Source: a virus
Lineage: Duplodnaviria; Caudoviricetes
IMG/VR virus record: IMGVR_UViG_3300037419_001000
Location: 1-39,791 of that record
DNA: 39,791 nt
Reading direction: 5' to 3' (one strand)
The first letter of the stretch is position 1; each line of letters starts with the position of its first letter. A program made the position numbers and the translations under genes. Of the stretch, positions 2,441-23,719 are shown in pieces. Under the pieces are notes generated by a model. That model saw only the letters and a program-made list of their open reading frames with translations. It did no database searches and was not told the origin of the DNA.

Positions 2441-2493
2441 TCACATTTTGTGAAAATAATCGCTTGACCCCATAATCACAATATGTGACAAGC
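2440..2493 (+). promoter_or_regulatory. OL-like operators (2 sites) and rightward early promoter
   Basis: ATCACATTTTGTGAA 2440-2454 and ATCACAATATGTGAC 2475-2489; TTGACC (2464)-N17-GACAAG; ATG at 2500. Confidence 0.85.
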
Positions 2494-2499
2494 GTTCCC

Positions 2500-2796
2500 A
2501 TGACCAAGGAACGCAATCCCCACGCCGCAGCCCGACTCCACCGCGGCGTCAACGCGACGGTCGGCGCCGTGCCAACGCCGGCCGTCGCTCCCACCAACGT
2601 CCCGCCACTGGACGCAGCCCGCATTCGCCGCATCTTCGGCCAGCCGGACCTGAACGAGGTCGCGAGCGCCTACCGCCCGCCCTTCGGTGAGCGGCTGGTG
2701 GCTTTCGCGCGTCGCAATCAGGAGCGTTTCGCCGTCGCGAGCCTGATCTTGGCGACGCTGCTCGGCTGCTACATGGCGTGGGAGTTCGCGCGATGA
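2500..2796 (+). CDS. Hypothetical protein with C-terminal TM helix
   Basis: First gene of the rightward operon; FAVASLILATLLGCYMAWEF is hydrophobic; ATGA overlap with the next gene. Confidence 0.7.
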   Translation: MTKERNPHAAARLHRGVNATVGAVPTPAVAPTNVPPLDAARIRRIFGQPDLNEVASAYRPPFGERLVAFARRNQERFAVASLILATLLGCYMAWEFAR

Positions 2797-12607: not shown

Positions 12608-13209
12608 TTCGCGACCCTCTCGTGGCGACCGATCCGTTCGCTGGCTTGGTCGATCGCCGTGAAATATCCGGAATAGGCGACGATCACGCCCCGGATGCGG
12701 CAGGGGAATCTGTGAACGGTCACTTCACATGGCCCGAGACCGGGAACGTCGAGTGAAGTAACTGCCCGAGCAGTTCCATCCGGTCGCTTGCTGGCATTGG
12801 CGTCGAGTCCCTGCAGGGTTCGGCAAAAGGCTTCCGGCCAGAAGTCTTCCTGCCGCCTGCCGATGACATCCCGGTGGGTTTGCCTGGCGGGCTCAAGGAA
12901 ACGCTCCTCGAAAGGCCGATTAACGAAGGCACAACGCCCCTCGACAATGAGCCAGTGAGGAAAGGGATCGAGATCGCGGGCTATACGCAGCCCGTTGATC
13001 TCGTTCTCCATGTTCGCCATTCGCTCGTCCTGGCGCTCGATATGCTCCCACGCCTCGTCGCGCTGCTGCTTCATCGCGCTAAGCACCGTGTCGAAATCCA
13101 CCCTGTTGGCGGCGCGCAATTGGATCTTGTGATTGAGGACGACCGCGACGAGGCCGCCGCCGAGAAGCGAGCTCGCCAGGCTGATGAGGGCGTAGGTGAT
13201 CGCGCTCAC
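12604..13209 (-). CDS. Membrane-anchored coiled-coil + PAS-domain protein
   Basis: N-terminal TM, heptad coil, then PFPHWL..EGRCAFVNRPFEERF...DVIGRRQEDFWPE (PAS_4-type signature) and VIVAYSGYFT. Confidence 0.8.
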   Translation of the reverse strand: MSAITYALISLASSLLGGGLVAVVLNHKIQLRAANRVDFDTVLSAMKQQRDEAWEHIERQDERMANMENEINGLRIARDLDPFPHWLIVEGRCAFVNRPFEERFLEPARQTHRDVIGRRQEDFWPEAFCRTLQGLDANASKRPDGTARAVTSLDVPGLGPCEVTVHRFPCRIRGVIVAYSGYFTAIDQASERIGRHERVAK

Positions 13210-16200
13210 TTCGGCGACCCTCTGGTGGTTGCAGCCGCCGATGCCACGGCAGCAATGCGCGCCATGATGAAGCGCGCCTTCTTGGCTCCGTAGGCCTTCT
13301 GCAGCGAGGCCACCGCCTGGTCCGCGCTATCCGCGTCGAGATAGACGCGCACGACGCGAGCGGCGTCCTCGCCGGTCATGCCGGGGATCGCCTCGACCGC
13401 ATGGGCCGCGACAAGATGCCCGGCGCCGCCGGTGGCCTTGTAGGCGAGCAGCTTCTTGCCGATCTGCCACCATTTCGCGGCCTGGTCGCCGGTCGCTCCG
13501 CTGGTCACGCGGTCGATCGTGTCGGCGACCTCGGCTTTCGCTCCCGCTCGGGACGCGAGCTTGGCGGCGGCTTCGTCGCCCATGACCATCGCATTGCGCG
13601 CTTGCTGGTTCGGTCCTTCGGCGAGCTGCCTTGCGGTTGAACCGCCGCCAGTGCCTGTTCCCGTGCCAGCGCGCGTCACCGCCGCTTCTCTCGCACCGGC
13701 AATCGCGAGCTGGCGGTTGCTCGGGCCTTCGCCGGAGCGATCATAGGCAGTCGCCGGCCCGTGATATTCCGGCTCGTTCGGAACGTCGGTGAACCGCGTG
13801 GCCGATTTCGCGAGCGCATCCATCTGTTCCGGGGCCTCGCCGAGGAAGTTGCGGCGCGCTGCGTCGAGCGCTTCCTTGGCCCGCATCCGCGATGCGTAAC
13901 GGGCATTCACCGGCGCATATTCGGGGAACTGCTCGGCAATCGCGCCACGAATGTCCCGCGACAGCCGCGACATTTCGACCTGGCCTTCGGAGCCGTCCGC
14001 GAGCTTTCCCGCAGTCCTGTCGAGCGCGGTGGCGATGTTGCGGGCGCTGTCGACGCTCAGGCCGATGCCCTTCGCATAAGCCCCGCGCGCGATCTCGGGC
14101 GCCGCGGTCAGCGTTTTGAGCTGCGGGATAAGGCCGCGCAGCTCGTTCCTCGTCTCGCTGCTGAGCGTGTGGCTGGCGAGCGCGTCGCGGATTGCGCCGG
14201 CTACCCGTTCATGCTCGAGATCGCCGGTCAGCTCGGGCGTCAGCGTCACCTGCTCGCCCTTGATCGGCGTGATCCCGCGCTCGAACTCGCTGCCCGCCAT
14301 GTCCTGGATGTCGGAAGCGATCTCGCGCGCCGGGCGCTGGACGAACGGTAGATGCTCCGGGCCGAGGTCGGAAATGGCCTGGTCGAAGTCGGTGGCGAGC
14401 GATTGCGGCAGCGCCTTGCGGAAGGCGGCAGCGGCTTGGTCCGCTGTGGCCCGTGCGGCAGGAGAGGAAGCTGCGGTGCGCGCGAGATAATCCTGCCCGC
14501 CGCGGCTGAGTCCAGCAGCTGCCGGAGCCTTAGCGCCCCGGGCAGTGAGGTCCGCGACCTTCGCCGTTGCTGCAGCGACGTCCTGCGTCGGCATCCGCTC
14601 GGCGGCGCGGGCGAGCGCGGCATTGGTCGCCAGCTGCTCGGGATCGCCGACCAACGGCGCCAGAATCAGGTTCTTGCCGCCGCGATAGCCGGACTGAGCG
14701 AGGCGCGAGCCGCCGCTGACGAGGCCGTGCGTTGCGCCAGCGACCGTGCTGCCAATCGCCGCATTGGTGAGGCGTGAGCCGATGTTCGGGTCGTCGCTGC
14801 CGAGGAAACCATAAAGGCCGCCGAGGCCGAGCGAGCGGCCGACGCCGCCACCACGGGCAACGGGATTGGCGAAAGCGCCGCCGAGGTTGCCGAGCAGGGT
14901 GGCCAGCGGATGCTCGGCAGCGAGCGCGTTGCGGCCCTGGATGATATCAGCTCGGGTCGGCCCCGCGCCGGTCAGGTCGTGGACCGCGCCGACGACATCG
15001 GGGACAGCGCCAAAGGTGGCTGCGTCACCAACGCCAACGGCGGCGGAAGCTGGTGCCGACGCGCTCACCTTGGCGCGAGCCTTTGCGAATCCCTCCAGCG
15101 GGACGTTCGAGCGCGGGTCGACGGTGAAGCCCTTGTATTTCCCGGTCGCGCGCATCTGGAGAAGCTGGCCGACGTTTGTGGTCGCCGGATCTACGCCGTT
15201 CTTCTGCATGAAGCCGATGATCTGCGCGTTGCTGACCGCTCCCTTGCCCCTGATCGGAGCGTTCAGATAAGCGGTTAGCGGCCCCGCGATCTTGGCAAGC
15301 TGCGGATTGATGACCGCTTTCTCGGTTCCGGACAGGCCCTCCGGATCGACACCGCGCAGGGCCGGCAGGGGGCTGCTGGCGGTAATCCCGTTGTCGCCGA
15401 CCCGAGTGCTGGAAGCGGGCTGCGCCTGGGCGCCGAACGTTAAGCGCAGGTTAGGATCCGCGATTGCCGCCGTGATCGATTTGATCGCCGCAGGATCGTC
15501 CGGGTCCATCCCGTAGAGGCGGGCGAGATGGCGGACGTAAATCTCCTGGGCGGTGTCTAGGCCCTGCCCTAGCGTCGACGCATCGGGCTGCGCGCCGCCC
15601 GACGGAGCAATATGGCCGCCCTGGTCGACGAAACCCAACGGCGCGAGCGCGTTCTGCAGGGCCTGCTGCTCGGACTGGTTGCGGGCGATCGAGCCGACGC
15701 CGCGCTTGCCCGTCTGCTCGTAGAGGGTGCGAATGCCGAGCTGGCGGAGGTCGCCGCTGATCTGCCCGAGCTTCGTCTGCAGGTTCGCGCGGTTCTGCCC
15801 AACGAGACCGCCGATCACGGGGATGTTTGATGCCGTCGCCGACAACGTGCCGGTGGCGAGCGGCTTGCCCGAGAGGTCGCGCGCTTCCCGGATGCTGTCG
15901 AGGACCGACCACGCATGGCTGATCGCGTTGCTGTCGCCGACCTTGAACGGCTGCGGGACGTCGCCGACCGTCTTGACGTTGCCGCTCGCGTCCATCGCCC
16001 ATGCTTTCGCCGGATCGAGAGTCGGGTTGGCGGCCACCTCATCGGCGGTGAGCACGTGCGGCTTGACGATGTTGGCCGTCTCGAGTTCGGTCTTCCTGGT
16101 GCTGGCGACCGTGTGTTGCCTCTCTTCCGGAGTCTGCGGCGTCGGTGTCTTCGGCGTGGGGACGAACCTCAAGCGCGGCGTAGCGGCGGGCGCTTCGCCA

Positions 16201-16241
16201 ACGACAGGATCATTGTCCCAAGGGTTAGCCTGCTGCATCAC
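13206..16241 (-). CDS. Large internal virion / DNA ejection protein
   Basis: 1011 aa, Ala/Gly-rich helical, NPWDNDPVV N-terminus, last structural gene before lysis in a podovirus gene order. Confidence 0.75.
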   Translation of the reverse strand: MMQQANPWDNDPVVGEAPAATPRLRFVPTPKTPTPQTPEERQHTVASTRKTELETANIVKPHVLTADEVAANPTLDPAKAWAMDASGNVKTVGDVPQPFKVGDSNAISHAWSVLDSIREARDLSGKPLATGTLSATASNIPVIGGLVGQNRANLQTKLGQISGDLRQLGIRTLYEQTGKRGVGSIARNQSEQQALQNALAPLGFVDQGGHIAPSGGAQPDASTLGQGLDTAQEIYVRHLARLYGMDPDDPAAIKSITAAIADPNLRLTFGAQAQPASSTRVGDNGITASSPLPALRGVDPEGLSGTEKAVINPQLAKIAGPLTAYLNAPIRGKGAVSNAQIIGFMQKNGVDPATTNVGQLLQMRATGKYKGFTVDPRSNVPLEGFAKARAKVSASAPASAAVGVGDAATFGAVPDVVGAVHDLTGAGPTRADIIQGRNALAAEHPLATLLGNLGGAFANPVARGGGVGRSLGLGGLYGFLGSDDPNIGSRLTNAAIGSTVAGATHGLVSGGSRLAQSGYRGGKNLILAPLVGDPEQLATNAALARAAERMPTQDVAAATAKVADLTARGAKAPAAAGLSRGGQDYLARTAASSPAARATADQAAAAFRKALPQSLATDFDQAISDLGPEHLPFVQRPAREIASDIQDMAGSEFERGITPIKGEQVTLTPELTGDLEHERVAGAIRDALASHTLSSETRNELRGLIPQLKTLTAAPEIARGAYAKGIGLSVDSARNIATALDRTAGKLADGSEGQVEMSRLSRDIRGAIAEQFPEYAPVNARYASRMRAKEALDAARRNFLGEAPEQMDALAKSATRFTDVPNEPEYHGPATAYDRSGEGPSNRQLAIAGAREAAVTRAGTGTGTGGGSTARQLAEGPNQQARNAMVMGDEAAAKLASRAGAKAEVADTIDRVTSGATGDQAAKWWQIGKKLLAYKATGGAGHLVAAHAVEAIPGMTGEDAARVVRVYLDADSADQAVASLQKAYGAKKARFIMARIAAVASAAATTRGSPK

Positions 16242-16609
16242 AGACCCCCCGCGGAAGAGAGATTCTTGCTGACGTACTGGCGGACGCTCGGCGGGACATG
16301 GCTGAGCCAGTCATCGCCGTATTTGGCGAGTGCGCGGTCCATCGCCCCCGGGCCCATGTTATAGGCCGCCCACATGCGGGCGAGGTTGCCCCCGTAGCGC
16401 TGATGGAGCGCGCGGAGGTATTCGCTGCCGACGCGATCATACTCCGCAGCGGAGTCCGCCTTGGCCGGAGCGACGCCGAAGCCTGGATCGCGCGCGGTGT
16501 CCGGCATGACCTGCATCGCGTATTTCGCGCCCTTGGGCGACGTGACGGGAGCGCCGGAAGGAGTGAAATCGCGCCCAGCGCTTTCGCTTTGCGCGGTGAT
16601 ACCCTCAAG
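16238..16609 (-). CDS. Lytic transglycosylase (SLT/GH23) domain, probably expressed as a +1 frameshift extension of the upstream ejection protein
   Basis: Frame reads LEGITAQSESAGR...SPKGAKYAMQVMPDTA...YL..L...YGGN...AAYNMGPG. The catalytic ES motif (GAA 16583-16585) lies upstream of the first ATG (16516). Confidence 0.8.
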   Translation of the reverse strand, partial: LEGITAQSESAGRDFTPSGAPVTSPKGAKYAMQVMPDTARDPGFGVAPAKADSAAEYDRVGSEYLRALHQRYGGNLARMWAAYNMGPGAMDRALAKYGDDWLSHVPPSVRQYVSKNLSSAGGL

Positions 16610-17327
16610 GAAAGTTGCCAGACGGAGCGACCGTCTGACCTCCGGGTTTCACGCGCGTCTTGCCGTCCGGCGTCGTATATTGCGCGCCTGGCGGGATGGC
16701 GTCGTAGCTCTTCTGGTCGGTGACGTGGGGCAACGCCGCCGGAGCTGCTTCGCCCCCTCCGTCCTCCTCGAACGTGCCGCCGCCCGGCGGGTGAAGGATG
16801 CGGAGGAAATCGCCGAAGCTGAGCTTGCCGCCGGTGCTCTGATAGTAGCGATAGTCCTTGATACTGCCGGTGTCGTTGCCGCCGGTCAGCTTGTCGCGGA
16901 GAATGGCCTTCCCCTCGTCTGAGGTTGGGTCGATGCCCGCGGCAAGCATCTCGCGGATGAGTTCCGGGTCTTCGGGATGCCGGATTTTGTAGAGCGCCGC
17001 GCCAACCTCGGGATTGGCCGCGATGATCGGCGCCAGCGTCTGGTCAGCGCCGAGGAAAGACGACAATGCCGAGCTCAGCTGCTGCTGCTGGGCGCGCTGA
17101 TAATGCATCGGCGCCATGCCGTGCGAGATGAGCAGCGCGTCACCGATACGGTCGAGAATGCCGCCGAGGCCATGCCCATACCCGCCCTGAGCCTGTGCCT
17201 GCGGGACCGGCGCCGAGGGCAGGTTGAATTGCGCTCCGTAGCCGGGCCGAGCGGCGGCAAAGCCGAGATCGTTGGTCGGCTGCGGCTGCTGCGGTTGCAA
17301 CATCCCGAGGAAATCGGCGAGGGCCAT
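16605..17327 (-). CDS. Internal virion / ejection protein
   Basis: 240 aa, Gln/Gly-rich, GILDRIGDALL, C-terminal YDAIPPGAQYTTPDGKTRVK; in the ejection-gene block. Confidence 0.75.
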   Translation of the reverse strand: MALADFLGMLQPQQPQPTNDLGFAAARPGYGAQFNLPSAPVPQAQAQGGYGHGLGGILDRIGDALLISHGMAPMHYQRAQQQQLSSALSSFLGADQTLAPIIAANPEVGAALYKIRHPEDPELIREMLAAGIDPTSDEGKAILRDKLTGGNDTGSIKDYRYYQSTGGKLSFGDFLRILHPPGGGTFEEDGGGEAAPAALPHVTDQKSYDAIPPGAQYTTPDGKTRVKPGGQTVAPSGNFP

Positions 17328-17603
17328 CTAGCGCCCCGTCAGAAGATCGGGAAACAGCATCGCCAGCAGGTGGCCCATGCCGATCGGCTGCGCGTTCATC
17401 GCTGAAAGGCCCGAGCCGGTCGGCTTCGACCAGCCCAAGCCGAGGCCCCGGCCGCCGCCGCCACCGGCGCCATGCTGCGGTATGTTGAAGCCCTGCGAAA
17501 ACGCCGGGTTCATCTGACCGAAGTTGAGATTGCCCCCGAACTGCCCAGGCTGCGCCGCCCCACCGCTTGGCTGGAACATGGCGAGAAGCTGCGAATAGTC
17601 CAT
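17328..17603 (-). CDS. Small Gly-rich internal virion protein
   Basis: ATG 17603 overlaps the upstream TGA; MDYSQLLAMFQPSGG..., 91 aa. Confidence 0.65.
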   Translation of the reverse strand: MDYSQLLAMFQPSGGAAQPGQFGGNLNFGQMNPAFSQGFNIPQHGAGGGGGRGLGLGWSKPTGSGLSAMNAQPIGMGHLLAMLFPDLLTGR

Positions 17604-18079
17604 CAGAGGAACGCCCCGAGAAATGCCCCGAGGTTGCCGGTGCTCTCGCTGCCCTTGCCCTTGCTGTATTGGCCGGCGTCGGTGACGAGCGAGCCTCCGC
17701 CGAGGCCGAGCTTGCCGATGCCGAAGAGGTTCTGGAGGTATTCGTTGAGCTTCGTCGAGGCGAGGTCCGAACGATACTGCTCCATCGCCTTTGCAGCCGC
17801 GCCGGACTTGTAGAGGCCCTGGCTCGCGAACTTGGAGGTCAGCGCGTCGAGGCCCTGGTTGAGCTGGAACTGGCCGCCCGACGAGTTCCACCAGTTATCG
17901 AGCGCGGCTTTCGACTTCGCCGAGTCGCCGGAAAGGATGTCCATGAGCGAGCCGAGGCCGCTGTTGTAGGCGTCGGCGCTCGATGATCCGAAGCTTTGCT
18001 GCGCCCACGGATAAGCCTGGTTGCCGCTCTTGCTGCTAGAGCTGGACCCGCCGAAAAGTGTTTGAATTACCCCGCTCAA
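17603..18079 (-). CDS. P22 gp7-like DNA transfer / ejection protein
   Basis: LFGGSSSS N-terminus, GQFQLNQGLDAL...ASQGLYKSGAAAKAMEQY; AGGAGG SD. Confidence 0.75.
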   Translation of the reverse strand: MSGVIQTLFGGSSSSSKSGNQAYPWAQQSFGSSSADAYNSGLGSLMDILSGDSAKSKAALDNWWNSSGGQFQLNQGLDALTSKFASQGLYKSGAAAKAMEQYRSDLASTKLNEYLQNLFGIGKLGLGGGSLVTDAGQYSKGKGSESTGNLGAFLGAFL

Positions 18080-18700: not shown

Positions 18701-20818
18701 CTATGCCCTTGGGCGAAGCATGAACGAATAATGGTCCATCGTGATCGTGTCGGCGGCATTTGCCAGCTGCATCGTGACGATGGCCGTCACGTTGGCGGTC
18801 GTGTCGATCGTTATATTCTGGCCGGACGCGCTGTTGCCAGCAGCATGAGGCCCGATGTTGAGGGCCGACAGGAAGCTCTGGCGACCGGCGTGGCCCCGGT
18901 TATAGACCGAGCAGCCCACTTTCGTTGAGGCGGTCGTGGTGACGTTGTTGCCGCCGGCCACCACCGTGCCGCCGAACTTGATCCTTGGCGTCTTGTTGTT
19001 GGCGCTGTTCGTGTAGGTGAAAAGCGCCTCCGCGCGGAACACGCCGTTTGCGCCCATTGAGTTTGCCGGAATCGAGACGGAAATCGCCGTGATCTCGGTC
19101 ACCACTTGGGTGAACCCGCCCGGCCCCGTCGTGGAGAATGCCGTTGGGCTGCCCGGAATCGTCGGGTCAGTGCCGGGAGTATAGGTGTTGTTGTAAATCG
19201 TCGCTGCGGTGGCCGAAGAGAACACCGCATAATAGAAACCCGCTGCCGAACCCGCAGAGATCGCATTGGCCGGGAGATAGACATAGGCGCTCGGATGCGT
19301 GGTGACGACGGACGCCACGCCGGACATCGCGCCGTTGTTGCCCATCGTGCCGCTCGAGACGATGATGAGCGGAAGACCGCATTGGCCGATGACATATTCG
19401 GCCTGCAGGTTCTTGATCGCCGTGTTGAGCGAGGCAACGTCGGAGAGGTTGTTCGACGTCTGGCAAAAATCGCCAGCGGGGTGAGTGGCCGCAGTATCCA
19501 GCCCAAGGTTGGCCCGGGCAGTGCTCGCCGTAACATCCGAGAGATTGTTGGCGGTCTGGCAGAAGTCGCCTGCCGCGTGCGTCGCCGACGTTCCCAGGCC
19601 TAGGTTGGTCCTGGCAGCAGAGGCTGTGGACGCGCCTGTGCCGCCGTCAGCCACAGTAAGATCGGTGATGCCCGTAATCGTGCCGCCAGAGATGCTGACG
19701 CTGCCGCTGTCCTGCGTCGCAATGGTGCCGAGTCCGAGGTTGGTCCGCGCCGTGGAGGCGCTGGCAAGATCGGAGAGGTTGTTCGCCGCAAGCAGCGCGC
19801 CAGTGAGGTTGTGTTCGAGGACGAACCAGCTACTTCCGACCGAAGCTTCCGTGCCTCCGGCATTGTCGGCCTTGGCGACAACGACATCTCCGACATCGAC
19901 GCTCTTGCCAGAAGCGCCGCCAACCTTGCCCGCGCCACTGACCGAATACGCGTCGCCCTTCGATGCCGCCGGATAATTTGGGTTCGCCGAGCAATCGAGG
20001 TCGCCCTTAAAGTCGAGCAGCCCGACTACGGCGGTATCGACGTATGCCTTGACCGCCTTTTGCGTGGCGATGCGCGCGTCGCTGTTGGCCGAGAGCAGCG
20101 TGTCAGTGTCGGATGCGAGCGTCGCCACGGTGCCGAGTCCGGATACGTCCCCCGTCGCGATCGCCAAGAACGTCTTGGCTTGGGCAGCCGTCAGGTCGGT
20201 GACGTTCCCCGCGCCCGTTGCACCGAGGATCGTCGCGTTGGCGGCTGCAGCGAGCATCCCCCGCGTAACCTTGTTCGCGCCGATGGTGACGACGAGAGTG
20301 CCGCTGGTCGAAACGTCGCCCGACAAATCGCCATTCGTGATCGCCGTGGCGCCGGAGAATTTCGCGAGATTGCCGCTGGCAGGACTTCCCGACGTGGTGA
20401 CGGTGCCGCCGCTGCCGCCGGACCCGCTCGAGGCCGCCGTGATGCGTCCCTGTGCGTCGACGGTGAGATCGGTGTTGGTGTAGCTGCCGGCAACAACGGT
20501 AGTGTTGGTCAGGCCCACGGTATCGGACCCGACCGAGATCCCGGTTCCGGCGCCGACATTCAGCGTCCGGTCGGCTGACAGGTCGCCGCCGCCGGTCAGG
20601 CCCGCCCCGGCAATGATCTGGCGCGTGACGTCGGCCTTGGAGTCGAGCCCGGTCAGCGCCTCGTCGGCCGAGGACTGCGCGGCGTTGGCGGAACTGATCG
20701 TTGCGACAAGGCTGGCAACCGCGTCGTTGAACCAGCGGATGAAGGCGGGTGTCGGGCCGCCGCTCTGGTCGACGATCTTGACGCCGGTGCGAAGCGGCGG
20801 GACCGGGCTCGCGCTCAT
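18701..20818 (-). CDS. Tail fibre / tail needle-type protein
   Basis: Start ATG 20818 (ATGA overlap). IVDQSGGPTPAFIRWF anchor, AGAGLTGGGDLSADRTL, VDAQGRITAA, repeated NNLSD..A.TAR.NLGLGT, beta-rich C-terminal domain. Confidence 0.85.
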   Translation of the reverse strand: MSASPVPPLRTGVKIVDQSGGPTPAFIRWFNDAVASLVATISSANAAQSSADEALTGLDSKADVTRQIIAGAGLTGGGDLSADRTLNVGAGTGISVGSDTVGLTNTTVVAGSYTNTDLTVDAQGRITAASSGSGGSGGTVTTSGSPASGNLAKFSGATAITNGDLSGDVSTSGTLVVTIGANKVTRGMLAAAANATILGATGAGNVTDLTAAQAKTFLAIATGDVSGLGTVATLASDTDTLLSANSDARIATQKAVKAYVDTAVVGLLDFKGDLDCSANPNYPAASKGDAYSVSGAGKVGGASGKSVDVGDVVVAKADNAGGTEASVGSSWFVLEHNLTGALLAANNLSDLASASTARTNLGLGTIATQDSGSVSISGGTITGITDLTVADGGTGASTASAARTNLGLGTSATHAAGDFCQTANNLSDVTASTARANLGLDTAATHPAGDFCQTSNNLSDVASLNTAIKNLQAEYVIGQCGLPLIIVSSGTMGNNGAMSGVASVVTTHPSAYVYLPANAISAGSAAGFYYAVFSSATAATIYNNTYTPGTDPTIPGSPTAFSTTGPGGFTQVVTEITAISVSIPANSMGANGVFRAEALFTYTNSANNKTPRIKFGGTVVAGGNNVTTTASTKVGCSVYNRGHAGRQSFLSALNIGPHAAGNSASGQNITIDTTANVTAIVTMQLANAADTITMDHYSFMLRPRA

Positions 20819-22485
20819 CGCGCGTCCGCGCGGCCGATCCTGACCGTCGCCCCGTCGTCGGTGAGCTTGAAGATGCGTCCCGGCTGCCGCATCAGGCCCA
20901 GCGCCCGCCACTCGACGACCTGGCTAAAAGAGCCTGCGGCCAGCGTCACAGACCCGTGGCTCAGCCAATTTTGCCCGAAATCGTCCGAAGTTTCGAGCGT
21001 GATCGCGGCGCCGGACTGCGAAGGCGAGCCGAGGGCGCAGGTCAGCTGGAAGGCTCCGCATGGCTTCGTGTCGCGCCCGGAGAGCGCGATCGCGCCGGTG
21101 ACGGTGCGGGTGAACGCCGCATCGCCTGTGCCCGTGTCGTCATCGCGCCCGGAGGTCGGATCGAGGCGGTAGAGGACGCCCTCGGTGTCGTCGCCGCAGA
21201 CGACATCGGTGCCGCCGTCGGCGAGCGTTCCCGCCATGCCCTGCCAGTTCTGCCCGCAGTGCGGCCGCCAGTAGGCGAGGTCAGGGTTGCTCCACTGGCT
21301 CCATTGCTGCGTCGTGAGGTCGAAAACGAGGGTCGCTGACTCGCCGAGCCGGAGGACGTAGAAGTCGTGCCCGTCGAGCGAAAACCCCCATGCGCGGGAG
21401 GTCGTTACACCGGGGCCCGGCGGCGGTTCGTCTCCGAAATAGCGAATGACCGAGTAAAGGTCGAAGGTGTCCGGATCCTGATACTCGGTGTAAAATGCGT
21501 CGTAGGATGGGAAATAGGCGAAAGGCACGCTCTGCGTCGTGTCGGGCGTGTCGCCCACGCCAACCCAATCGCTGAGCAAGTGGCTGTCGAGCGTGGTGAG
21601 ATCGGCGGCGTTGATCTTCTCGACGCCCTGGAAGTCGTTGTTCGGGTCGCCGTTGATCGCCGCCGGTATCCAGAACGAGGTCAGGCCCGGTCGGATGTCG
21701 TCGAGAGTGAAGTTCGCGACGCTCGAGCTTCCCGCCGGGTCGCCGCCATAGTCGCGGCTCGTAATCACGGAGAAGTCGTCGGTGCTAAGCAGGGCCAGCA
21801 CCTGGTTGTTGCCGAGCGAGACGACCCATCCGGAATCCGTGTGCGTCGCGCTCACTCCCGGATCGGCGGTGATGCCCAGCGTGACCTCGGAATAATCCGG
21901 AGCGATCGAGCCCGATCCGAAGTCGACGACACGCCACGCCTTGAAGGTCGTGCCGTCCCAGGAGAAGCCCCAAATGTCCCCGTAGAGGTCCTGGTCGAAC
22001 GGGCCTTGCGAGATGAACGGCGAGTTGACCGACGTGAACTCGTCGTAAGTGTCGAGGCTCGGGTTGTAGACGTAGACCCGCTGGTCGGTGAGCAGGGTGG
22101 CGCCGTCATTGCTGCCGAAACAGACGCGCCTGCTCCCGTCCACGGGGGAAATGAACAGGGTCATGTTTCCCATGCCGCCCTGCGCGCCGTTGAAGAAGCG
22201 GAGGAGCGAGATGTCCGAAGCGCCGAAGCTGCTGGTTTTGACGAAGTTGGGAGTCGAATTTCCGTCCAGCGAGTAAATGGTCCCGTCGTCGTCGATCACC
22301 GAAGCGTCGAGCTGGTCGAAATCTAGCGCGTTCGAGGGCGTGTTGTAGGTGTAAGTCGGCCCCGCCATGTCGAGGATGGAGAAGGGGCTTTGCGGCGGAA
22401 TGACCCGATAGCGGCCGTTGGGCGACGTATAGGCAAGCGTCGCGAAGAACTCGTTGGTCAGCTGCTTGTCGAAGGTCAGGGCCAT
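20815..22485 (-). CDS. gp10-like tail hub C-terminal half fused behind a roughly 360-aa acidic beta-rich domain
   Basis: RAWGFSLDGHDFYVLRL..TLVFDLTTQQWSQW...SDDFGQNW...VEWRALG is the C-terminal part of the P22 gp10/Phage_stabilise family; PPPGPG linker precedes it. Confidence 0.8.
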   Translation of the reverse strand: MALTFDKQLTNEFFATLAYTSPNGRYRVIPPQSPFSILDMAGPTYTYNTPSNALDFDQLDASVIDDDGTIYSLDGNSTPNFVKTSSFGASDISLLRFFNGAQGGMGNMTLFISPVDGSRRVCFGSNDGATLLTDQRVYVYNPSLDTYDEFTSVNSPFISQGPFDQDLYGDIWGFSWDGTTFKAWRVVDFGSGSIAPDYSEVTLGITADPGVSATHTDSGWVVSLGNNQVLALLSTDDFSVITSRDYGGDPAGSSSVANFTLDDIRPGLTSFWIPAAINGDPNNDFQGVEKINAADLTTLDSHLLSDWVGVGDTPDTTQSVPFAYFPSYDAFYTEYQDPDTFDLYSVIRYFGDEPPPGPGVTTSRAWGFSLDGHDFYVLRLGESATLVFDLTTQQWSQWSNPDLAYWRPHCGQNWQGMAGTLADGGTDVVCGDDTEGVLYRLDPTSGRDDDTGTGDAAFTRTVTGAIALSGRDTKPCGAFQLTCALGSPSQSGAAITLETSDDFGQNWLSHGSVTLAAGSFSQVVEWRALGLMRQPGRIFKLTDDGATVRIGRADAR

Positions 22486-22486
22486 G

Positions 22487-23719
22487 TCAGGCCGCCCTGT
22501 CGGCGTTGATCGCTTCGCGGATACGCTGCGCGATCCCCGGCGTCGAAACGAGCCGCGGGGCGTCCGTCACCTGCCACACGCTGCCGGTCGAATCGACCAG
22601 CATCATGCTCTCGCCGATCCGGAACACGGTTCCCGGCCATGCGCCGCGCTCGAACAAACGGCCCTGCTGGCGAAGGAACGGGATCAGCGGATCGCCCGCC
22701 GGATACCAGACCTCGATCGAATCCTGCCCGGGGAACCACACCTGGTCGCCGGCCACGATCGCGTCAGTCGTCGAATCTGGTGAGCGTTCGTTCGTCGCGT
22801 AATTCAGCGGGTCGATGGTCGTCTCGCCCGGCTCGATCCAGTAGAAGCGGCCGTTCTTATCCTGGCCCGCCGCGACGACGCAGATGACATATTGCGCTAT
22901 CGAAGCGACCGAAACGATGCCGTCGTTGTCCGGGACCGCCACCGAGGCGAAGGACGAGCCGCCGCCGCCCGACATGGTGGAGCCGCCCCACGAGCCATTG
23001 ACGAGGGTTTCCGTGGTAGTGACCGAATTGCCGCCTGTTCCCGGGTCGATCGCGCGAGCGACCAATACGGTGGCGGTTACGCTGACGGCGGCGGCATCGG
23101 GATTGCCGGTCAAGGTCGAGTTGTAGTCGGTCCCGGCGACGCCGGTGTTGCCGATCGCGTCGAAAAGATGCTGCAGCGCCTGCGAGGCTGAGCCGCCGAG
23201 CGCGACCAGCCACGGGTTGGCGCTCGTCCCGTCCGGCGTCCCGGTGGTCACATCGGCCGCGAATTCATAATGGACCGTGCCGATGACCACAGTCTCGCCG
23301 GCCGAAATCGCCCCGGAGACGGTCAGCGTCCCCTTGGCGTAGTCGTTGGTCGTGTAATATTTGAGCGAGTCACCATCGGCGACGAACAGGTAAGTGTCCG
23401 TAGCCGCGAGGCTGACGCCGCCCGTCGAGGTTCCGAGCGTCCCGATGGTCGTCTCGGTCTCGTCGGGGTCGATCCGGTAGAGCGTGTTGCCGGAAACGAC
23501 GAACTCAGCTTCGTCGAACGCGCCTGGCTGCGAATAGGACTGCCGTATCGGGCCCGAGCCGATCGTTTTCCATCGCTTGAGGCCTGGGCGCGTCAGCAGC
23601 GCCACTTCGACGTCGAGGTTCGTCGGATCCTGCTCGAAGTAACGGTTGCCGAGCGCGATGTCGGGCTCCTGGGCGACCGACCGCGACCAATCCGTGATCC
23701 CGAGCTTCACCCTCACCAA
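22487..23719 (-). CDS. gp10-like tail hub N-terminal half with an inserted domain
   Basis: NRYFEQ..LLTRPGLK..GPIR..FVVSGNTLY, DPLNYATNERSPD, SIEVWY..PFLRQQG..ERG, VSTPGI. Confidence 0.85.
   Translation of the reverse strand: MVRVKLGITDWSRSVAQEPDIALGNRYFEQDPTNLDVEVALLTRPGLKRWKTIGSGPIRQSYSQPGAFDEAEFVVSGNTLYRIDPDETETTIGTLGTSTGGVSLAATDTYLFVADGDSLKYYTTNDYAKGTLTVSGAISAGETVVIGTVHYEFAADVTTGTPDGTSANPWLVALGGSASQALQHLFDAIGNTGVAGTDYNSTLTGNPDAAAVSVTATVLVARAIDPGTGGNSVTTTETLVNGSWGGSTMSGGGGSSFASVAVPDNDGIVSVASIAQYVICVVAAGQDKNGRFYWIEPGETTIDPLNYATNERSPDSTTDAIVAGDQVWFPGQDSIEVWYPAGDPLIPFLRQQGRLFERGAWPGTVFRIGESMMLVDSTGSVWQVTDAPRLVSTPGIAQRIREAINADRAA

Follow-up and report, generated by a model that had tools for sequence, protein, structure and literature searches.

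The 39.8-kb virus record IMGVR_UViG_3300037419_001000 (39,791 nucleotides, analysed whole and referred to here as the window) carries on its minus strand a gene of 240 amino acids (aa), likely to encode an ejection protein, whose end is overlapped in the +1 frame by the coding sequence of a cell-wall hydrolase. The question raised by this locus is how ribosomes might reach the second frame. The explanation favoured here, with a probability of roughly 0.85, is programmed +1 ribosomal frameshifting on UUU_Y, stimulated from the 5' side by a Shine-Dalgarno (SD) sequence together with a hairpin. As judged from the aligned sequences, the conserved unit is an SD, an abutting stem, one or two nucleotides (nt), the E-site codon and UUU_Y, a putative element that spans 34 nt and is supported by covariation.

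Read along the minus strand, the junction consists of GGAG (16643-16640), GTCAGACGG (16639-16631), the loop TCGCT, CCGTCTGGC (16625-16617) and AAC, followed by TTT (16613-16611), CCT, which is the A-site codon, and TGA (16607-16605). Every base and frame given at this junction by the initial annotation is correct, letter by letter, and the 240-aa open reading frame (ORF) indeed ends Asn-Phe-Pro-stop. The core hairpin (Table 1) can be extended by a U-G pair (16638/16618) and a G-C pair (16639/16617), and its z-score against 200 shuffles is -3.3. The +1 frame opens just 12 codons before TTC, and the predicted long product is 362 aa, with 123 residues appended after Phe239.

The domain in the +1 frame had been described as a complete soluble lytic transglycosylase (SLT) domain, and a full match to the Pfam SLT family bears this out (PF01464; E=6.8e-10, 39 bits against a cut-off of 21.3). 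The Glu of its ES motif is invariant in all ten aligned SLT sequences. Because the adjoining Ser aligns with Ser504 of P. aeruginosa Slt, this Glu corresponds to catalytic E503 of that enzyme, whose E503Q mutant is described as inactive in PDB titles. The predicted structure of the region has a pLDDT of 82, and its best Foldseek matches are to Slt (TM 0.58). Profile, catalytic Glu and fold thus predict that the +1 frame is an intact SLT lytic transglycosylase domain. A product begun at ATG 16516 would miss the predicted active site, as had been pointed out, since it starts 23 codons past the invariant Glu. A search of GTDB with the SLT domain of the window returned three loci, all with SLT in frame within long proteins and without the signal, and 10 of 14 SLT relatives in IMG/VR are likewise in-frame domains of 700-780-aa proteins.

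Similar junctions were sought in two ways. A degenerate-pattern scan yielded at least 119 loci (about 260 estimated). Among the 119 pattern matches listed, 108 have their TTT in the frame of a long ORF that lies upstream, and the 0 frame stops within 2-5 codons in 99 of these. The free positions of the pattern covary (A-U 42 and C-G 28 at one pair, with 72 distinct motifs). When the SD was left out of the pattern, 39 of 120 matches had the split-ORF layout and all 39 carried GGAGGT, whilst none of the 80 matches without GGAGGT had that layout. When TTTC was left out, TTTC was found exactly 5 nt 3' of the stem in 106 of 119 matches and TTTT in 3. The second route was protein retrieval, in which three alignments of appended domains, derived from the pattern-found loci and stripped of their junction residues, contributed the best 80 of 382, 114 and 81 matches, making 240 loci. 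A layout test blind to the motif classed 167 of these as split in +1, 51 as in frame, 3 as split in -1, 13 as other and 6 as too near an edge; L582 and L412, classed as in frame, are both +1 split.

An in-frame TTT-Y is present in 166 of the 167 loci split in +1, and GGAGG lies upstream in 162, so that most split relatives retain GGAGG, a covarying hairpin and TTT-Y, the conservation that the initial annotation had proposed to look for. There are 129 distinct junctions. Of these, 128 have the in-frame TTT-Y and 124 have GGAGG, which begins 27, 30, 33 or 36 nt upstream and at no other distance. The base after TTT is C in 125 and T in 3 of the 128 junctions; in the same ORFs as background, TTT occurs 348 times against 540 for TTC, and only 101 of the 348 are followed by a pyrimidine. 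The A-site codon is CGC in 58, CCC in 44 and TGA in 3, and is a sense codon in 125, with a 0-frame stop 2-5 codons beyond the site in 115. The same signal precedes unrelated domains, namely SLT, Peptidase_M15_3 and a PHROG 873-like domain, with 37 clusters at 70% identity. A covariance model finds the element in the cultured phage Pam1, which was outside the training set (E=6e-6). In Pam1 (ON014753; L380:4932-5279) the signal has TTT-T and a 103-codon +1 frame with an M15-like domain; the signal is unannotated, and the frame appears only as the 49-aa Pam1_15. The model has no match in Sphingopyxis phage VSN-002 or in the large in-frame SLT proteins. Rfam gave four weak matches, which fall far short of the threshold and lie outside the element, and blastn of the junction against cultured phages gave four short matches at E=3. 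The matches listed from tblastn searches of cultured phages with five types of appended domain are mostly large fused proteins.

In three relatives (L582:2126-2740, L079:2529-3071 and L122) the first part of the +1 frame is a domain of about 100 aa without a match in Pfam, or in PHROG where scanned; in L582 and L079 an M15-like peptidase comes after it.

These data leave a negligible probability for one alternative, that the split arose in assembly or by decay of a fusion gene. Such domains do occur fused in frame, as in VSN-002 gene 41. However, two other contigs (L001 and L002) show 100% identity with the window, across 7.8 and 6.3 kb, and have the same junction, and contigs from all four runs span positions 16605-16613, where an indel had been suspected as a possibility, with no gap or other letter (these being contigs, not raw reads). 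Furthermore, 128 distinct junctions break at one and the same codon and have intact domains. Error and decay are thereby refuted.

The evidence for the hairpin is of several kinds. In 112 of 124 junctions it exceeds synonymous recodings in stability. Across the 106 aligned junctions of the 30-nt class, which are related sequences, 80% of cells pair as against 58.6% in shuffled alignments, and the covariation score is 0.53 as against 0.21, a value reached in none of 500 shuffles and lower in every slid register. Changes on both sides are seen at 8 of the 9 hairpin pairs. The hairpin occurs in three registers (65, 23 and 10 of 98 junctions). Structure is confined to the upstream side (z<-2 in 32 of 43 junctions upstream and 1 of 43 downstream), on which ground a 3' stimulator was rejected.

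When GGAGG is taken as free to pair, the gap between it and the stem is 0-1 nt in 123 of 124 junctions, whatever the loop length and register, and the stem stops 4-5 nt short of UUU in 117 and 3 nt short of it in 3. The initial annotation had proposed that folding of the hairpin places the SD exactly 3 nt from TTT, a geometry that is not conserved, being found with GGAGG free in only those 3 junctions. The 3-nt spacing uses GGAG and a closing G-C pair in which the fifth base of GGAGG joins the stem. Of the 65 junctions of one register only 59 allow this pair, and all 23 of the second have G-G in its place. A longer stem, GGAG-UUCC, present in the free-RNA fold of the window, was also rejected; it is not conserved and needs TTT-CC, whilst the next codon is CGC in 58 of 128 junctions. 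The broader proposal, a +1 shift at UUU_C with an upstream SD and hairpin that appends the SLT domain, is strongly supported by conservation.

Not all relatives use the signal in the same direction. Seven protein-retrieved loci have reversed polarity, with the same signal (one has GGGGG as its SD) and the hydrolase in the 0 frame; here the +1 frame stops after 3, 10, 3, 2, 4, 4 and 4 codons, compared with a background median of 19 and 15% at four or fewer. Three further examples came from the pattern scans (L064, L347 and L365). The reversed locus L556 is the same contig as L054 and counts once. In such loci, shifting would truncate the protein and remove the enzyme. Another seven loci are -1 versions: in three the domain can be read only through a -1 shift, and in the other four it is in frame and the -1 frame stops after 2-4 codons. 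The heptamer C_CCT_TTY (C_CCU_UUY) is present in all seven, as against none of 60 background Pro-Phe pairs. All seven carry GGAGG, but their hairpins are weak (-2.7 to -8.4 kcal/mol, against a median of -12.9 kcal/mol in the +1 class, where just 1 of 124 is weaker than -8.5 kcal/mol). The four '-1, truncating' loci could be decayed signals. The upstream protein of one -1 locus, L553, is recorded from Sphingomonas genomes.

There are also relatives with the enzyme fixed in frame. Two homologues of the 240-aa protein, P0007 and P0009, are 337-338-aa ORFs in which a GG...F peptide is followed by an in-frame lytic domain, and five other homologues end in the motif peptide (in both cases only the proteins are available). 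In VSN-002 gene 41 (L379:4188-5360) and L535 the domain is fused in frame before a short C-terminal tail, with no signal, and these probably represent a single-form state; no signal was seen in two in-frame loci of similar size, L535 and L618. Six other loci (L529, L533, L534, L538, L539 and L540) have an M15-like domain at the C-terminus of ORFs of about 850-920 aa, in frame and without the signal.

Since +1 and -1 signals both exist in adding and in removing polarity, selection appears to favour production of both protein forms. In a tree of the domain (75 rows, 82 columns) the minority states are scattered and never form one group in 200 bootstrap trees, which suggests that they may have arisen repeatedly, although the starred branches force just 1-2 changes per minority state and recombination of domains could yield the same scattered pattern.

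The existence of four states together with in-frame fusions removes both internal initiation and decay as general explanations. In the former, the hydrolase ORF would be initiated independently, the hairpin bringing the SD to CTG 16621 or another non-AUG codon. Hairpin-assisted initiation has a precedent in T4 genes 25 and 38, where a hairpin brings the SD near the start codon. The spacing of GGAGGU plus 5 nt does resemble that of initiation, and an SD-preceded ATG, GTG or TTG occurs in the +1 frame of 31 of 127 relatives. The start candidates of the family are nevertheless scattered, mostly within the stem, with no conserved position, and the codon that is conserved is UUU/UUC. The signal of reversed-polarity loci faces a +1 frame of only 2-4 codons in 6 of 7 cases, which initiation cannot explain, and the in-frame fusions P0007 and P0009 do not fit it either. 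The initial annotation had argued from the lack of a start codon. This is true of the window, where CTG 16621 and ATC 16600 are the only candidates before the invariant Glu, but it does not extend to the family, in which only 6 of 127 junctions lack ATG, GTG and TTG before the first conserved motif. Overall, initiation is very improbable.

A transcriptional origin is also highly improbable. In this scheme RNA polymerase would drop one U at TTT through hairpin-driven realignment, as in the Roseiflexus IS630 element, where a nascent stem-loop with a GCAA loop, next to a 9-10 bp hybrid, causes a one-base deletion (PMC5009743). The distance is suggestive, as 5 nt plus TTTC after the stem also make 9 nt, and many relatives have GCAA loops. 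IS630 however requires T5C5 beside the stem; the tract is absent here, where only TTT-Y is fixed, behind a variable spacer of five bases, and the hybrid could not re-pair. Nor would GGAGG have a role for polymerase. TTT is in frame and tolerates either C or T next, as re-pairing of tRNA-Phe predicts, and the -1 variants have a heptamer of the ribosomal type, X_XXY_YYZ, placed in the right frame.

Frameshifting on UUU_Y, by comparison, could proceed as follows. Once peptidyl-tRNA-Phe occupies UUU in the P site, the hairpin would refold in the mRNA exit path behind the E-site codon, looping out about 20 nt and returning GGAGG to the anti-SD of 16S rRNA. The joint duplexes would push the ribosome one base forward, and tRNA-Phe (anticodon GAA) would re-pair from wobble UUU to UUC, which is possible at 128 of the 129 distinct junctions; a -2 shift was ruled out, as tRNA-Phe cannot re-pair there. 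The A site would hold neither a stop nor a fixed hungry codon. UUU_Ynn is known to be prone to +1 shifting in bacteria without a 3' stop (PMC5009743), and a UUUC site gives 4-13% +1 shifting in Mesorhizobium (PMC4755241). On 70S ribosomes a stable hairpin on the 5' side reaches about 60% of the +1 shifting that an SD drives and dampens -1 shifting (PMC6321510), with which the weak hairpins of the -1 class agree. The gene would yield the 240-aa protein and the 362-aa form with the transglycosylase according to the fraction of ribosomes that shift. Both forms may be packaged, with a minority or fixed share of subunits cutting peptidoglycan during DNA ejection.

Within this explanation, it is somewhat more likely than not that the SD works by way of the collapsed hairpin and that the hairpin is not itself the main stimulus. 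The converse, in which the hairpin alone is a mechanical stimulator, there is no pairing across it, and GGAGG either slows ribosomes earlier or is kept for its Gly-Gly peptide, is a sub-case of the same +1 shift and is rather unlikely. It draws on the ability of an upstream hairpin to mimic an SD on 70S ribosomes (PMC6321510), on L383 (about 460-490) and L412 (about 645-690), which keep the hairpin and TTT-C with no SD upstream, and on the retention of GGAGG by -1 variants whose hairpins are weak. The abutment of GGAGG and stem despite varying loop length and register speaks against it. Moreover, the peptide alone does not explain GGAGG, because GGA begins only 37 of 434 other Gly-Gly pairs in the same ORFs.

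Several points weigh against frameshifting driven by an SD and hairpin. The 70S hairpin effect was obtained only at a stalled CUU_UGA without RF2 (PMC6321510), and the window has no A-site stop. In known cases the SD lies 3 nt from the site of a +1 shift and 9-14 nt from that of a -1 shift, and its duplex is reported to rupture once 5-7 nt have been translated (PMC5009743); in the phage element the duplex would need to form again some 25 nt upstream, at a collapsed spacing of 4-5 nt plus the helix. GGAGG is missing from 4 of 128 junctions, L412 has the hairpin and TTTC without it, and some ATG, GTG or TTG is found in the +1 frame of 121 of 127 junctions, 31 of them with an SD-like 4-mer. The two closest homologues of the 240-aa protein, P0002 and P0003, are without the terminal peptide. 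The reversed-polarity and -1 sets were selected by eye from the layout classes. Counts overstate the number of independent events, because the loci are related, and protein retrieval favours one lineage, because its queries came from pattern-found loci; what it shows is nucleotide constraint within that lineage, not the full range of the element.

Among the closest known systems is ICEMlSym msi172-msi171 (FseA) of Mesorhizobium, which shares the UUUC site, the movement of tRNA-Phe from UUU to UUC, an alphaproteobacterial mobile element, an upstream G-rich sequence, and fused and split forms in nature; it differs in being a transcription activator regulated at 4-13%, and the available text mentions neither an upstream hairpin nor forms of reversed polarity (PMC4755241). 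As in the FseA and YopN-TyeA type of UUU_Y shift, an in-frame UUU-Y lies near the end of the first ORF with the second ORF in +1. The G-rich element of that type is represented by GGAGG in 124 of 128 junctions, but the hairpin separates it from the site. prfB (RF2) resembles the element in having an internal SD on the 5' side of a site where the P-site tRNA re-pairs in +1 (PMC5009743, PMC6321510). There the SD is 3 nt from CUU, with UGA in the A site, whereas the phage element has neither feature, its SD lying about 25 nt from UUU_Y across a hairpin; given that the stem ends 4-5 nt before UUU in most junctions, it is no copy of the prfB spacing.

An engineered 5' refolding hairpin abutting the E site raises +1 and attenuates -1 shifting when stable, matching the strong +1 and weak -1 hairpins seen here. 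It is however a synthetic 12-bp structure, placed instead of an SD rather than beside one and active only without RF2, whilst the phage element would be natural (PMC6321510). Short and C-terminally extended virion forms are likewise made from T3/T7 gene 10, the capsid and tail genes of Listeria PSA and A118, and genes with Ig-like extensions, and a review regards phage structural extensions as indifferent to +1, -1 or in-frame expression (PMC5009743). Those shifts place Ig-like or similar domains on capsid or tail proteins, with CCC prolines at the +1 sites (PMC5009743); the phage element differs in placing interchangeable cell-wall hydrolases on a likely ejection protein, and its signal persists where the domain is in frame. 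dnaX, in which an SD-assisted, truncating -1 shift sets the ratio of tau to gamma, resembles the reversed-polarity loci, but has A_AAA_AAG, an SD 9-14 nt upstream and a 3' stem-loop (PMC5009743), whereas no 3' structure is conserved in the phage +1 class.

The element would work like known UUU_Y +1 frameshifts, whilst its SD-plus-hairpin stimulator, gene class and four-state switching appear to be new. To our knowledge, natural bacterial +1 stimulators are few (an SD at 3 nt, a stop or hungry codon, a 3' pseudoknot), and 5' hairpin stimulation on 70S ribosomes is known only with engineered RNA. In literature searches, outside of which most subscription journals lay, neither the signal nor frameshifting in genes of this class was seen described, and there is no description of the element in the available parts of a phage frameshift tool paper (PMC10885494) or of the Pam1 genome paper and its supplement (PMC9382816), the latter two giving no mass-spectrometry result for individual proteins. 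There is about an even chance that an SD on a refolding 5' hairpin is a new natural recoding switch, efficient in +1 at a sense codon without a stop or 3' structure, and repeatedly retuned by one- or two-base indels among four states (+1 or -1, enzyme added or removed) to set the share of subunits with a swappable hydrolase in the DNA-ejection conduit. On this reading, the viability of both opposite polarities suggests an efficiency of tens of percent. The element would provide a natural SD-plus-hairpin case with more than 100 natural variants and +1/-1 counterparts, and hence a small model in which to study how duplexes at the mRNA exit determine the direction of frame change. It also suggests that annotation has overlooked a long form of an ejection protein, equipped with interchangeable hydrolases, including in cultured Pam1 and in prophages of culturable Sphingomonas and Sphingobium.

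Table 1. Features of the junction, its flanking genes and the -1 relatives (positions are those of the window unless a locus is named).
Feature	Position	Strand	Basis
Internal SD, GGAGG(T), read as Gly-Gly codons GGA GGT	16638..16643	-	Sequence; conservation
Core hairpin CAGACGG / TCGCT / CCGTCTG, -11.9 kcal/mol	16619..16637	-	Folding, covariation, synonymous-codon null
5-nt spacer GC-AAC; AAC the predicted E-site codon	16614..16618	-	Sequence; conserved spacer length
Shift site UUU_C, predicted peptidyl-tRNA-Phe re-pairing UUU to UUC	16610..16613	-	Conserved in-frame TTT-Y
+1 frame, SLT domain; predicted catalytic Glu codon 16585-16583	16238..16612	-	Pfam, alignment, model
240-aa 0-frame ORF, likely ejection (pilot) protein, predicted short product	16605..17327	-	Position in block
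91-aa ORF adjoining the 240-aa gene (TAG-ATG)	17328..17603	-	ORF list
Small DNA-ejection gene (PHROG 598)	17603..18079	-	E=1.4e-5
1011-aa gene, likely large ejection protein	13206..16238	-	Function from position
-1 versions: L553, L555, L589, L603, L611, L612, L614	L553, L555, L589: about 2470-2500		GGAGG, weak hairpin, C_CCT_TTY

The window, with 64.5% GC, has genes for terminase, portal, scaffold, major head, head-closure, tail-fibre, endolysin, integrase and RecT proteins, as identified by family searches, a set consistent with a temperate short-tailed phage. The block 3' of the head-closure genes comprises a 158-aa gene of a PHROG 'DNA ejection' family, the 91-aa ORF, which has no PHROG match, the 240-aa gene, the SLT frame and the 1011-aa gene, which has no match in Pfam or PHROG family searches. 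PHROG 578, PHROG 598, the 240-aa gene and the 1011-aa gene follow one another in the order of a P22-like gp7/gp20/gp16 block. The same gene order is found in Pam1 and VSN-002, where the equivalent gene is annotated as an injectosome translocase. The label of ejection gene given to the 240-aa ORF in the initial annotation is likely to be right on this gene order, but finds no direct family match: it is taken from position because the protein has no match in Pfam or PHROG and no pairwise similarity to Pam1_14 or VSN-002 gene 41. A profile built from 119 upstream proteins of related junctions does match it (E=7e-13).

The ATG of the 1011-aa gene (16238) overlaps the stop codon of the SLT frame as TGATG, and in 109 of 126 family junctions the next long ORF begins -1 to +10 nt from the +1 stop. 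For three related loci, identical proteins are on record from Sphingobium and Sphingomonas. Two neighbouring ORFs on the minus strand of the window, 20815-22485 and 22487-23719, both match the head-closure family PHROG 578.

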